DNA of 64,000 nt. Origin: a virus. Position 1 is the first letter of the stretch. Each line of letters begins with the position of its first letter. Both the position numbers and the translations under genes were made by a program. This document shows positions 5,630 to 14,015 of this stretch, piece after piece. The notes beneath the pieces are model-generated. The model saw nothing but the letters and a program-made list of their open reading frames with translations. It was not told the DNA's origin and did no database searches. Where the stretch lies: positions 1 to 64,000 of IMG/VR virus record IMGVR_UViG_3300042453_001086; one strand, given 5' to 3'.

Positions 5630-5741
5630 AAAGGATAGTAAGACCATCAGGGAAATGGTGGAGATACTATGCTCCCGCCACCCTCAGGCGGGATATGAGA
5701 GACGTGCTTTATACACCCTATAGGTCTCGGTTAGCGGGTGT
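5630..5741 (-). ncRNA. PhotoRC-II-like cis-regulatory RNA in the psbA 5' UTR
   Basis: Minus strand ...CUCAUAUCCCGCCUGAGGGUGGCGGGAGCAUAGUAUCUCCACCAUUUCCCUGAUGGUCUUAC matches the motif I recall upstream of cyanophage psbA; not verified by covariance model. Confidence 0.8.
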
Positions 5742-5776
5742 CGGAACGTTAAGAAATGTTTCGTTTCCTTAACACT

Positions 5777-10632: not shown

Positions 10633-10833
10633 ATGACGCACTACAAACCATACTCAGCTGAGTGGCATCGCAAACGCTATCTAAAGGAAGCGTTGGACAA
10701 GTATTTGGATGAATACATCGACAACGAAGTAATCGTTGAAGATATTTTAGACATTCTATCTGAACGCTCCGAGAAAGCATACCAAGAGTTCAGTAGAATC
10801 AACGATTTGGAATCAATGCTAAATGCTAAATAA
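10633..10833 (+). CDS. Hypothetical protein, 66 aa
   Basis: Directly downstream of a consensus promoter. Confidence 0.75.
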   Translation: MTHYKPYSAEWHRKRYLKEALDKYLDEYIDNEVIVEDILDILSERSEKAYQEFSRINDLESMLNAK

Positions 10834-10852
10834 CCCTATATGGAGATTGCAC

Positions 10853-11179
10853 ATGCTCTCTACACAATATCGCCTACGCTTGGAAGGTATCTGCAGCAAG
10901 ATTGCCAAGCATGAATCAGTAGGTTTAGAAGATATGATTTGGGCAGAGAAACTGGCCAAAGCAAATCGTTCTGCTGCAACAATACTACGTCAAGCAAGAC
11001 GTAAAGCAGAGAACCCAGACATGCAAGAAGGAGATATGGATGATTTTTTAAATCAACTTGACATCGGTGGTCTTGGACACGAACGTTTCGGCAAGCGTGG
11101 TTTTGATAGTGTAGATGATATGGTTGATTGGTTTACTGAAGGTAGAGACAAACCCGAAGACTGGAGGCAACGTGACTGA
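10853..11179 (+). CDS. Conserved cyanophage hypothetical protein
   Basis: MLSTQYRLRLEGIC...DMIWAEKLAKAN...PEDWRQRD; GGAG SD. Confidence 0.8.
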   Translation: MLSTQYRLRLEGICSKIAKHESVGLEDMIWAEKLAKANRSAATILRQARRKAENPDMQEGDMDDFLNQLDIGGLGHERFGKRGFDSVDDMVDWFTEGRDKPEDWRQRD

Positions 11180-11339
11180 AGACAACGACAAATGGAATAG
11201 AGGTTTAGATCTATTCATAGAGAGCGTACACAAACCAGACAACGAACTGAGACAGTGTGCTCACAATCAGAAATGCTACCACGAGCTAATGTATATCAGG
11301 GAAGCGATGATTCAATACTTACATACACTAAGGAAATAA
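11172..11339 (+). CDS. Hypothetical protein, 55 aa (GTG start)
   Basis: DKWNRGLDLFIESVHKPDNELRQCAHNQKCYHELM; overlaps the previous stop. Confidence 0.65.
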   Translation: MTEDNDKWNRGLDLFIESVHKPDNELRQCAHNQKCYHELMYIREAMIQYLHTLRK

Positions 11340-11362
11340 AAAAGGGGGCATACGCCCCCTTC
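11338..11362. terminator. Terminator between convergent units
   Basis: A-run, AAGGGGGC-ATAC-GCCCCCTT. Confidence 0.75.
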
Positions 11363-11368
11363 GTTGTA

Positions 11369-11452
11369 TCATAGAGTTGCCATATGATATTGGGCAATCT
11401 CCAATCTCTTTTGTTTTTCAATCTGTCTACGGATTAGATTCAACCAGTTCAT
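11369..11452 (-). CDS. 27-aa peptide coupled to the DUF4278-like gene (ATGA overlap)
   Basis: MNWLNLIRRQIEKQKRLEIAQYHMATL; GGAGG SD upstream. Confidence 0.65.
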   Translation of the reverse strand: MNWLNLIRRQIEKQKRLEIAQYHMATL

Positions 11453-11607
11453 TTTGCTACCTCCTGATTGTTACAGGGACGATAGGCAACACCACGATAT
11501 GTATTCTGTGGATGTGCTGGTGCATGAGTTTGTGAATACCAACGCTGATATTCTTGCTTAGGTACGTCAGTGTTGTACTGACAACCTCTGTAGGTTGCTT
11601 GTGACAT
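11449..11607 (-). CDS. DUF4278-like small protein, 52 aa (absent from ORF track)
   Basis: MSQATYRGCQY...NTYRGVAY, a duplicated YRG motif; AAGGAG SD; lies under a glutamine riboswitch. Confidence 0.8.
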   Translation of the reverse strand: MSQATYRGCQYNTDVPKQEYQRWYSQTHAPAHPQNTYRGVAYRPCNNQEVAK

Positions 11608-11635
11608 TAGGTTTCTCCTTAGTTTTTTAGGTTAA

Positions 11636-11729
11636 AGAGCGTTCCTTCAGTCGGCTTTTGCGTTCGCTATATAGCGAATGAACGATCCGTTCCGAGTCGG
11701 CTTACTTCCGTCCCATAGGGATGAACGTA
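11636..11729 (-). ncRNA. Tandem glutamine-I (glnA motif) riboswitch
   Basis: Two aptamers: CGUUCAUCCCUAUGGGACGGAAGUAAGCCGACUCGGAACG and CGUUCAUUCGCUAUAUAGCGAACGCAAAAGCCGACUGAAGGAACG; CGUU..AACG P1, GGAAGUA E-loop and CUGAAG elements. Confidence 0.85.
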
Positions 11730-11737
11730 TTTTATAT

Positions 11738-11765
11738 ATGGTATCCTTTTTGTAACTTTAGATAC
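11738..11765 (-). promoter_or_regulatory. NtcA box 8 nt upstream of a TAN3T -10 element
   Basis: GTATCTAAAGTTAC (GTA-N8-TAC) at 11765-11752; -10 TACCAT at 11743-11738. Confidence 0.7.
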
Positions 11766-11769
11766 CAAA

Positions 11770-11843
11770 CACTCTCTGTAGGATTCGAACCTACGACACC
11801 CTGATCCGTAGTCAAGTGCTCTAATCCACTGAGCTAAGAGAGT
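11770..11843 (-). tRNA. tRNA-Arg(ACG)
   Basis: Cloverleaf; loop CT-ACG-GA. Confidence 0.95.
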
Positions 11844-11846
11844 AAG

Positions 11847-12571: not shown

Positions 12572-12722
12572 CCGCCCCCCTGATAAATCTTGCTTATGTA
12601 TCGATGGTTACATATTAGCAAGCAGGAGGGATTTGGCGATATGCTGGCGGCAATCGCTAATCTTAATCTCCATTTGCTTGTTGAAGTTAACCATGATGTT
12701 TACCAATGTGTGTTTATTTATA

Positions 12723-13821: not shown

Positions 13822-14015
13822 CGTTGCTCGGCTCGCCACTTGCCCTTTGACTGGAGGCAAGAAACCAGGCGGGAGAGAGTCCCATCCGCACCACTTGTTT
13901 TTTAATGGGAAAACAAGAAACCAGAAGGGGGTTCACCCGACCAGGGCGCTTTTTATGTCATCCCGAGACAAGTAGGGTCATTGACTCCACCAGTGCTGTT
14001 ATAGACCATCCGTGT
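13822..14015 (-). ncRNA. manA-like RNA motif
   Basis: Two repeated modules GGUUUCUUG-loop-CAAGUGG, GUGGUGCGGAUGGG..CCCGCCUGG and a terminal GUGGCGAGCC; the loop UUCCCAU can pair with AUGGGA (pseudoknot); located beside tRNAs. Confidence 0.75.

Follow-up and report, generated by a model that had tools for sequence, protein, structure and literature searches.

A mobile cyanophage cassette with a predicted NtcA-type box, a proposed two-core glutamine riboswitch and two micro-protein genes

The DNA analysed here is a stretch of 64,000 nucleotides (the window; positions 1 to 64,000 of IMG/VR record IMGVR_UViG_3300042453_001086) from a complete virus of 189,882 bases, and between positions 11339 and 11765 its minus strand carries the only copy in that record of a compact cassette. 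The cassette consists of a box of the type bound by the nitrogen regulator NtcA, a structured leader RNA (11727 to 11640), two very short genes and an intrinsic terminator. An initial annotation, made from the letters alone, had listed these elements apart from the terminator, and all that it listed were found on the minus strand where it had placed them. In the direction of transcription the features are as follows.

11769..11844, minus strand: tRNA-Arg(ACG), final gene of a unit of nine tRNAs; context, and a possible source of read-through
11752..11765, minus strand: NtcA-type box GTATCTAAAGTTAC, a palindrome match to GTA-N8-TAC
11733..11743, minus strand: candidate -10 elements, predicted only, TACCAT (11743-11738, fits TAN3T) and the overlapping TATATA (11738-11733)
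11723..11727, minus strand: 5' strand of the outer P1, CGUUC, invariant
11711..11721, minus strand: P2a hairpin UCCC-UAU-GGGA, changed on both sides in 4/4 pairs among relatives
11703..11710, minus strand: J2/3 CGGAAGUA, holding the 5' half of loop E (AGUA) and G11708
11695..11702, minus strand: 5' strand of P3, AGCCGACU, partner of 11656-11649
11657..11692, minus strand: putative inner, permuted core capping P3, composed of GAACG (11692-11688), loop GAU (11687-11685), CGUUC (11684-11680), A, the P2b hairpin (11678-11663) and CGCAAA (11662-11657); P2b covaries and a G-C pair (alignment columns 49/82) is invariant
11649..11656, minus strand: 3' strand of P3, AGCCGACU; innermost pair GC, UA or AU among relatives
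11640..11648, minus strand: J3/1 GAAG (3' half of loop E) and 3' strand of the outer P1, GAACG
11633..11639, minus strand: anti-SD CUCUUUA, abutting P1; C11639 is the partner of G11708
11615..11621, minus strand: Shine-Dalgarno sequence (SD) UAAGGAG of ORF1, predicted to pair with the anti-SD
11449..11607, minus strand: ORF1, 52 aa, DUF4278-like by profile matches, with two YRG motifs
11460..11465, minus strand: SD of ORF2, AGGAGG, within the end of ORF1 and 7 nt before the ATG
11369..11452, minus strand: ORF2, 27 aa, basic helical peptide, ATGA-coupled to ORF1; matches phrog_545
11339..11362, minus strand: strong intrinsic terminator, a 9-bp G+C-rich stem and a T run, which also faces convergent plus-strand genes

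Comparison of sequences shows that the cassette is a real conserved unit. An exact search with the 16-base junction between the two RNA units recovers it from at least 120 viral contigs, and homologous cassettes are present in ten GenBank cyanophages (DSL-LC03, S-CREM1, P-SSM7, S-PM2, P-TIM68, S-SRM01, P-RSM6, Bellamy, DSL-LC02 and a single-cell virus). The genes that flank it differ among these GenBank phages and include nrdB, speD, td, regA and talC (transaldolase); box, leader, ORF1, ORF2 and terminator form one unit, which moves as a block from one genomic context to another. Among 185,579 prokaryote species genomes the double-core junction has five matches, all of them on short MAG contigs or contigs of phage size and none on a clear cyanobacterial chromosome, so that in the exact form searched the junction looks phage-borne. 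The nearest DNA matches of the window belong to the Kyanoviridae, cultured members of which also have the cassette, and the cassette would be a host-derived mobile mini-operon of these T4-like cyanophages. The window also encodes PhotoRC-II, a wcaG RNA and more than 20 tRNAs.

The NtcA-type box was described in the initial annotation as a GTA-N8-TAC palindrome 8 nt ahead of a TACCAT hexamer, and this is what lies at 11765-11752, followed after 8 nt by TACCAT (11743-11738) and ATATAAAATA. Of 90 unique loci, 65 have an exact GTA-N8-TAC at the corresponding place and 80 have one with at most one mismatch (background expectation 0.016 per 41-nt window); the family consensus is TGTA(T/A)CA...TACAAAA. 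The conserved layout across contigs, together with the fixed place of the box, excludes chance, and the sequences indicate that the predicted NtcA-type box travels with the cassette. Matches to GTA-N8-TAC are generally abundant in the window (25 against 9.5 expected), and enrichment of this motif in cyanomyoviruses has been reported before (Sullivan et al. 2010). A role of the box as a general early-promoter element was considered and rejected, as none of the 24 other GTA-N8-TAC sites in the window has the arrangement box-AAAA-N8-TTGACT and TTGACTATATA is absent from the window. The candidate late-promoter word CTAAATA has 11 matches in the window where 11 are expected, from which nothing can be concluded. 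In host gifB-type loci a box also lies upstream of the aptamer (10-16 nt before it in 11 of the 12 loci fetched), so that the association of box and riboswitch is ancestral, with a different placement in the phages.

The promoter regions fall into two classes. In class A, to which most relatives belong, the box is followed by 8 nt, TTGACT(A/T)ATA, 17 nt, TATAAT and, after another 7-8 nt, the aptamer, which centres the box near -51. The window belongs to the minority class B (nine loci), in which this sigma-70 pair is missing and the aptamer begins 24 nt after the box; it has no -35 hexamer at the position where relatives have TTGACT and then ATATA. If TACCAT served as the -10, the predicted start would lie about 4 nt before P1 and the box would be centred near -27.5, or near -32.5 with TATATA, while TATAAA as the -10 would place the start inside P1. 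NtcA sites that activate are centred about -41.5, whereas those that repress lie over the core promoter; the NtcA-repressed gifA promoters have their boxes at -30.5 (Synechocystis) and -28.5 (Anabaena) (PMC6316151). The earlier statement that the box sits at a repressor-type position would hold for the window with TACCAT or TATATA as the -10, both of which put its centre in the gifA range, and does not extend to most relatives, in which a centre near -51 does not predict repression. In the mechanism that we favour for the window, NtcA with 2-oxoglutarate would bind the box over the -35/spacer region of the only plausible local promoter and would block transcription under nitrogen limitation. 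Only 3-4 nt separate the end of the tRNA-Arg gene from the box, and no terminator lies between them, which makes read-through and processing a live alternative source of the mRNA; lacking a strong TTGACT-N17-TATAAT promoter of its own, the cassette in the window may need transcripts that continue from the tRNA operon.

The same observations feed a different account of the box, in which NtcA is not a repressor here and instead activates under nitrogen stress, or in which the box is a relic and the cassette is read from the tRNA operon and freed by tRNA 3' processing. The class A arrangement agrees with this account, as the box there lies upstream of a complete sigma-70 promoter, and so do the lack of a -35 element and of a terminator behind tRNA-Arg in the window; cyanophage NtcA sites have moreover been read as driving expression (Sullivan et al. 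2010), and the window contains GTA-N8-TAC-N22-TACGTT, which fits activator spacing. The TACGTT match, however, is forced by the conserved aptamer sequence, and an activator-type start would lie within P2a, so that the outer aptamer would be lost. Where hosts have this riboswitch in gifB-type genes, the box sits over the core promoter and NtcA represses, and activation by nitrogen stress would contradict an ON switch that needs glutamine. We consider a non-repressor role unlikely, though it deserves a hearing, and continue with repression by NtcA as the preferred reading.

The leader belongs to the glutamine-I family. A scan with the glnA model of Rfam (RF01739) gives 37.7 bits for 11686-11636, above the gathering score of 35, and a sub-threshold match of 24.8 bits for 11727-11688 (E 0.004 in a local search); both scores come from a parse that sets the two units side by side. 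Beyond P2a, P2b is also changed on both sides among relatives in 3/4 pairs, the three-way junction of P1, P2 and P3 is present with an invariant P1 and a P3 that covaries as a long-range helix between the units, and loop E (AGUA at 11706-11703 opposite GAAG at 11648-11645) is complete across the two units and in neither unit by itself. Published glutamine-I aptamers have a long-range pair between the second G of CGGAAGUA and the C just 3' of P1. With RF01739 matches, junction, loop E and long-range pair all in place, the initial identification of the leader as a glutamine riboswitch stands as a firm prediction. A glnA RNA in a cyanophage has been reported already, namely the S-CREM1 copy annotated as a glnA riboswitch (PMC9964418).

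The arrangement of the two units is a separate question. They had been described as two tandem aptamers, a description that does not survive comparison with relatives: the P3 that covaries joins the units, local P3s fail and the long-range pair spans both. The 8 nt that follow AGUA in unit 1 are complementary to the 8 nt that precede GAAGGAACG in unit 2 in every variant, among them AGUCG/CGACU, AGUCA/UGACU, GGACGG/CCGCCC, GGACGACG/CGCCGCCC, AGCCGACG/CGCCGACU and AGCCGACA/UGCCGACU; several of these, such as GGACGG/CCGCCC and AGUCG/CGACU, can pair between units only and make local mini-hairpins impossible. In an alignment of 38 sequences the innermost inter-unit pair of P3 is GC in 12, UA in 10 and AU in 4, with none unpaired, and the outermost is AU in 30, GU in 4 and GC in 3. 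Local 2-bp mini-P3 hairpins, one per unit, were rejected on the pair counts of the same alignment, being unpaired in 18 of 29 and 16 of 26 sequences. The J2/3 base corresponding to G11708 is complementary to the one that follows the last P1 strand (C11639) in 38/38 aligned sequences (22 C-G, 16 G-C) and in 116/116 unique loci (69 C-G, 47 G-C). A side-by-side parse would turn this pair into G-G and C-C in the two units of the window's allele class. Throughout the alignment AGUA is confined to unit 1 and GAAG to unit 2, so loop E can be complete only across the units.

These patterns indicate, as far as comparative sequence data go, that the two RNA units form a nested two-core fold that shares a long-range P3 and are in series in the sequence only. 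The outer part would be a complete type-I aptamer with P1 (11727-11723 with 11644-11640), P2a, loop E (AGUA with GAA), P3 (11702-11695 with 11656-11649) and the long-range pair G11708-C11639, and this outer element is collinear with the single aptamers of hosts. P3 would be capped by a second three-way junction and not by a loop, built from the GAACG-GAU-CGUUC hairpin, P2b and CGCAAA. In the inner junction the elements follow the same cyclic order as in the outer core, J2/3 resembles that of type II, and a candidate long-range G-C pair is invariant. An extension of P3 is plausible, since in the crystal structure of a glutamine-I aptamer P3 projects to one side (PMC6698751). The evidence for nesting comes from the long-range pair, P3 and loop E. 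Because the four P1 strands are identical, covariation is silent on them and the P1 partners are deduced rather than seen; inspection of the alignment for extensions at the P1 flanks gave no signal that separates nested from side-by-side folds. The covariation of the long-range pair may reflect few events, with its switch requiring five changes on a weakly supported tree and one on supported branches. The minimum free energy of the whole leader is unexceptional (z = -1.16), and in the nearest-neighbour model enforcing P3 costs energy.

An ordinary tandem or pseudo-cooperative riboswitch of two independent glutamine-I aptamers would instead have P1 helices between 11727-11723 and 11692-11688 and between 11684-11680 and 11644-11640, with a mini-P3 in each unit. 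The complementarity of the P1 strands permits this fold, Rfam parses the leader in this way, and the first P1 would form first during co-transcriptional folding; 157 doublet glutamine riboswitches have been catalogued as pseudo-cooperative (PMC9481103), and tandem glnA RNAs have been noted (PMC2864571). It is difficult to reconcile, however, with the covariation of the inter-unit P3 and the loss of local P3 pairs in most variants, with long-range pairs that would be G-G or C-C in 47 of 116 loci, the window included, where the nested fold has Watson-Crick pairs in 116/116, and with loop E halves that never occur together in a single unit. The linker is fixed at 3-5 nt, and the Rfam scores of the two units lie far below those of host cyanobacterial aptamers (45-61 bits), which are single and collinear and have a local P3. 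Independent side-by-side aptamers are in our view improbable, and the nested fold is used in what follows.

The doublet glutamine riboswitches in the literature (Weinberg 2010, Sherlock 2022) probably belong to the same sequence class, as they comprise two glnA-like units and many are from marine metagenomes; there the units are treated as independent and control as pseudo-cooperative, whereas covariation in the phage leaders points to a shared P3 and a nested topology. The tandem glycine riboswitch is comparable in that its two ligand-binding cores share one leader and one expression platform and depend on each other structurally, but its aptamers lie side by side and are joined by tertiary contacts, while in the phage leader one core would be inserted into a helix of the other. 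An annotated relative, Synechococcus phage S-CREM1 (PMC9964418), has a homologous cassette with 83% leader identity and a class B promoter region; it differs in being annotated only as a 99-nt glnA element and in having the helical peptide fused to the C-terminus of the YRG half.

Directly 3' of P1, CUCUUUA (11639-11633) can pair with UAAGGAG (11621-11615) in a 7-bp anti-SD:SD helix that abuts P1. The SD of ORF1 is predicted to be paired with a probability of at least 0.98, and of the 30 distinct leaders in the allele class to which the window belongs, 26 have the hairpin, with variable loops. In the model proposed for gifB of Synechocystis, the ribosome-binding site is masked by the C just 3' of P1 and the nucleotides next to it, and glutamine recruits this C and melts the helix. 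As the anti-SD directly 3' of P1 matches this model, we infer by analogy that the leader is a glutamine ON switch. Binding of glutamine would draw C11639 into the long-range pair, melt CUCUUUA/UAAGGAG and free the SD of ORF1, and translation of ORF2 would follow via coupling and its own SD.

ORF1 matches DUF4278 (PF14105) at 22.7 bits (E 1.3e-4, profile positions 2-41 of 57), under the gathering threshold of 25.3; its homologue in P-SSM7 passes at 30.3 bits and two close homologues carry PF14105, so ORF1 is called DUF4278-like. It also matches phrog_5049 (4.8e-9). Its close homologues number 34, every one an unnamed protein from metagenomes, and a search for longer ones yielded one metagenomic protein of 95 aa and no IF17. 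An AlphaFold model (mean pLDDT 69.5) combines a beta-hairpin with a helix (residues 14-28) and a second, weak hairpin; it is too weak for a fold search. ORF2, proposed as a 27-aa peptide coupled to ORF1 through ATGA, is by the sequence evidence a real gene, because it matches the N-terminal half of phrog_545 (5.8e-6), has a strong SD of its own and belongs to a family with fusions and stand-alone copies. Its relatives are basic helical peptides with a consensus close to LNxLxLIKxQxxKE...AQL, ATGA-coupled in dozens of loci. In S-CREM1 and in two further loci (L031, L052) the ORF2 module forms the C-terminal part of a fusion with the YRG half, in the Bellamy type it is fused at the N-terminus, and in some metagenomic homologues it is joined in frame to ORF1; in three loci (L043, L068, L124) it stands alone behind the riboswitch. 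From the fusions of the two modules it can be argued that their products work together. Searches of PDB, NCBIfam and PADLOC with both ORFs gave nothing meaningful. The sole PDB match is a chance NWL..IR word in a gp41 peptide.

A close known system is the promoter and leader of gifB (IF17), described for Synechocystis sp. PCC 6803 and further cyanobacteria by Klahn et al. 2018 (PMC6212724). It likewise has an NtcA box at the core promoter, a type-1 aptamer in the 5' UTR and, after P1, a C that pairs together with the following nucleotides with the ribosome-binding site; it is a glutamine ON switch, and the gene downstream begins with a YRG domain of the DUF4278 type. In the host, however, there is one aptamer only, whose P3 is a local hairpin (45-61 bits). 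The host box is 10-16 nt away from the aptamer and covers the -10 and the transcription start, and the host proteins, of 90-157 aa, have an IF7-like or another domain at the C-terminus. The phage differs by its nested second core, by a protein of 52 aa and by a separate peptide of 27 aa. In Prochlorococcus MED4, PMM1846 / Yfr6 also combines a short IF17-like protein that lacks the GS-binding C-terminus with a glutamine riboswitch and an NtcA motif over the start, but its aptamer is a single type-2 'Downstream-peptide' pseudoknot, while the outer core of the phage leader is type 1 (loop E, P3) and only the inner core is type-2-like. The earlier assertion that glutamine-I riboswitches precede DUF4278 genes in picocyanobacteria has to be corrected accordingly, as marine picocyanobacteria carry type 2 (DP) aptamers and not glutamine-I (PMC6212724), with which our own check of sequences agrees.

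The likeness to gifB raises the possibility that ORF1 and ORF2 are phage versions of the glutamine synthetase (GS) inactivating factors IF17 and IF7 and shut down the GS of the host, and GS had been named as a possible target. The regulatory logic of NtcA box and glutamine riboswitch is that of gifB, ORF1 resembles the DUF4278 part of IF17, and small basic proteins fit the electrostatic style of interactions between inactivating factors and GS. DUF4278 is, however, the N-terminal part of IF17 and dispensable for GS inactivation (PMC6316151); the GS-contacting, IF7-like region is absent from ORF1, ORF2 shows no similarity to the IF7-like domain, and neither ORF has a match in PDB or NCBIfam. 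A split IF17, with ORF1 as the N-terminal domain and ORF2 as the IF7-like C-terminal domain, found no support either: the profile of the ORF2 family reaches an hhalign probability of 0.2% against host IF17-type proteins and 0.4% against the other C-terminal type, values that have low power for helices of 30 aa. GS as the target is therefore unsupported, and inactivation of host GS by these peptides appears improbable.

A role of the two proteins in nitrogen metabolism is deduced only from their regulation. The two tiny proteins would be made only in the nitrogen-replete infected cell, and the earlier proposal of expression mainly in nitrogen-replete cells is a reasonable one, given the position of the box and the fit of the anti-SD to an ON switch; from the sequence the nitrogen-gated design is plausible. 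The DUF4278-like protein and the basic helical peptide would then jointly act on a host target tied to nitrogen metabolism. Our main reading, to which we assign a probability of roughly 0.55, is a host-derived mobile cassette in which a composite glutamine sensor and repression by NtcA would confine to nitrogen-replete conditions the expression of two proteins that act together on a host target. A broader and more tentative proposal, which we would back at slightly under even odds, is that 'tandem' glutamine riboswitches, at least in cyanophages, are single two-core sensors consisting of a type-I aptamer whose P3 is closed by a circularly permuted, type-II-like core, with coupling of two ligand sites and a steeper response to nitrogen as possible consequences, and that together with the NtcA operator such a sensor times the action of two cooperating micro-proteins on a host nitrogen target.

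NtcA sites and glnA RNAs in cyanophages, doublet glutamine riboswitches and the combination of riboswitch and DUF4278 in hosts are already known. New with respect to published work are the nested architecture, the box that travels with the cassette and the second peptide, for none of which a paper was found in the literature compared (which excludes Ames and Breaker 2011). If true, the nested two-core architecture changes how many "doublet" glutamine riboswitches should be modelled and probed, and it predicts ligand sites that are interdependent and not independent. A mobile and widely shared cassette that appears to read both nitrogen signals of the host, 2-oxoglutarate via NtcA and glutamine via the RNA, opens the sensing of host nitrogen status by cyanophages to direct tests. 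The two conserved micro-proteins offer a way into the function of the DUF4278 peptides that abound in picocyanobacteria.

Within the inner permuted core of the leader RNA, the loop of hairpin P2b is replaced in many relatives, and not in the window, by a complete ORF of 50-60 codons (L001:1517-1700 and L003:1545-1745; also L006, L007, and L009). This ORF begins with an ATG in the P2b 5' arm and ends with a TGA inside GACUGAAGGAACG, and the stem that closes it covaries (UCUAU/AUAGA, UCCCA/UGGGA, UCCUAUG/CAUGGGA). Hairpin P2a of the outer type-I aptamer also encloses an ORF in other contigs (L027, L034, L054, and L098). The copy of the hairpin-enclosed ORF in P-SSM7 has already been annotated as a gene, PSSM7_205, and none of the ORFs enclosed by P2a or P2b in the relatives matched a Pfam family.

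The phage double-core junction, which joins both aptamer units, is also present in contigs assigned to non-cyanobacterial genomes or MAGs, such as a 188-kb contig of Nonlabens xiamenensis (L133), as well as in a Prochlorococcus single-cell assembly, on a contig of 189 kb. The contigs of this set (L131-L135) are probably cyanophage DNA that was binned or assembled together with cellular genomes.

Some metagenomic homologues of ORF1, the DUF4278-like protein of the cassette, extend beyond the usual stop (P0017, P0032, P0001, and P0016); the additional sequence reads ..KWILNLL.. or ..QWTGW..., and these proteins are in-frame fusions to the start of an ORF2-like peptide. At the host cyanobacterial loci (L141-L168), C-terminal domains of two distinct types occur among the DUF4278 proteins of 120-157 aa, one IF7-like (..IKxRQQxMLxRxAxExG..) and one helical (..HxANIRxxLERRxxxAKxxGDExLVxLLE..); proteins of either type can be encoded behind a glutamine-I aptamer, as at L145 and L149.

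Further features of the window are:

5659-5751 (-), PhotoRC-II RNA, strong Rfam match (73.9 bits)
10823-11179 (+), 118-aa ORF, C-terminus ...DKPEDWRQRD
12598-12611, GTA-N8-TAC site in the gap that precedes the nine-tRNA unit
13825-13925 (-), wcaG RNA, strong Rfam match (95.8 bits)

Both RNAs are known cis-regulatory motifs of cyanophages. The whole window holds 25 GTA-N8-TAC sites, most of them in coding regions; dinucleotide shuffling predicts 9.5, and none of 100 shuffles reached 25. At the cassette, the minus strand at 11740-11766 contains an inverted repeat of 6 bp around a 15-nt loop; its GGUAUC arm (11766-11761) overlaps the left half of the NtcA-type box and its GAUACC arm (11745-11740) the candidate -10 TACCAT. 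The repeat was not found in the other class B loci, the relatives whose aptamer likewise starts 24 nt after the box, and could be a structure within a read-through transcript or due to chance.

The 118-aa ORF converges on the cassette terminator. In the cyanophage DSL-LC02, its homologue (L009:1152-1469) immediately precedes the cassette and points the same way, so either the cassette or this neighbor has been inverted between the two phages.
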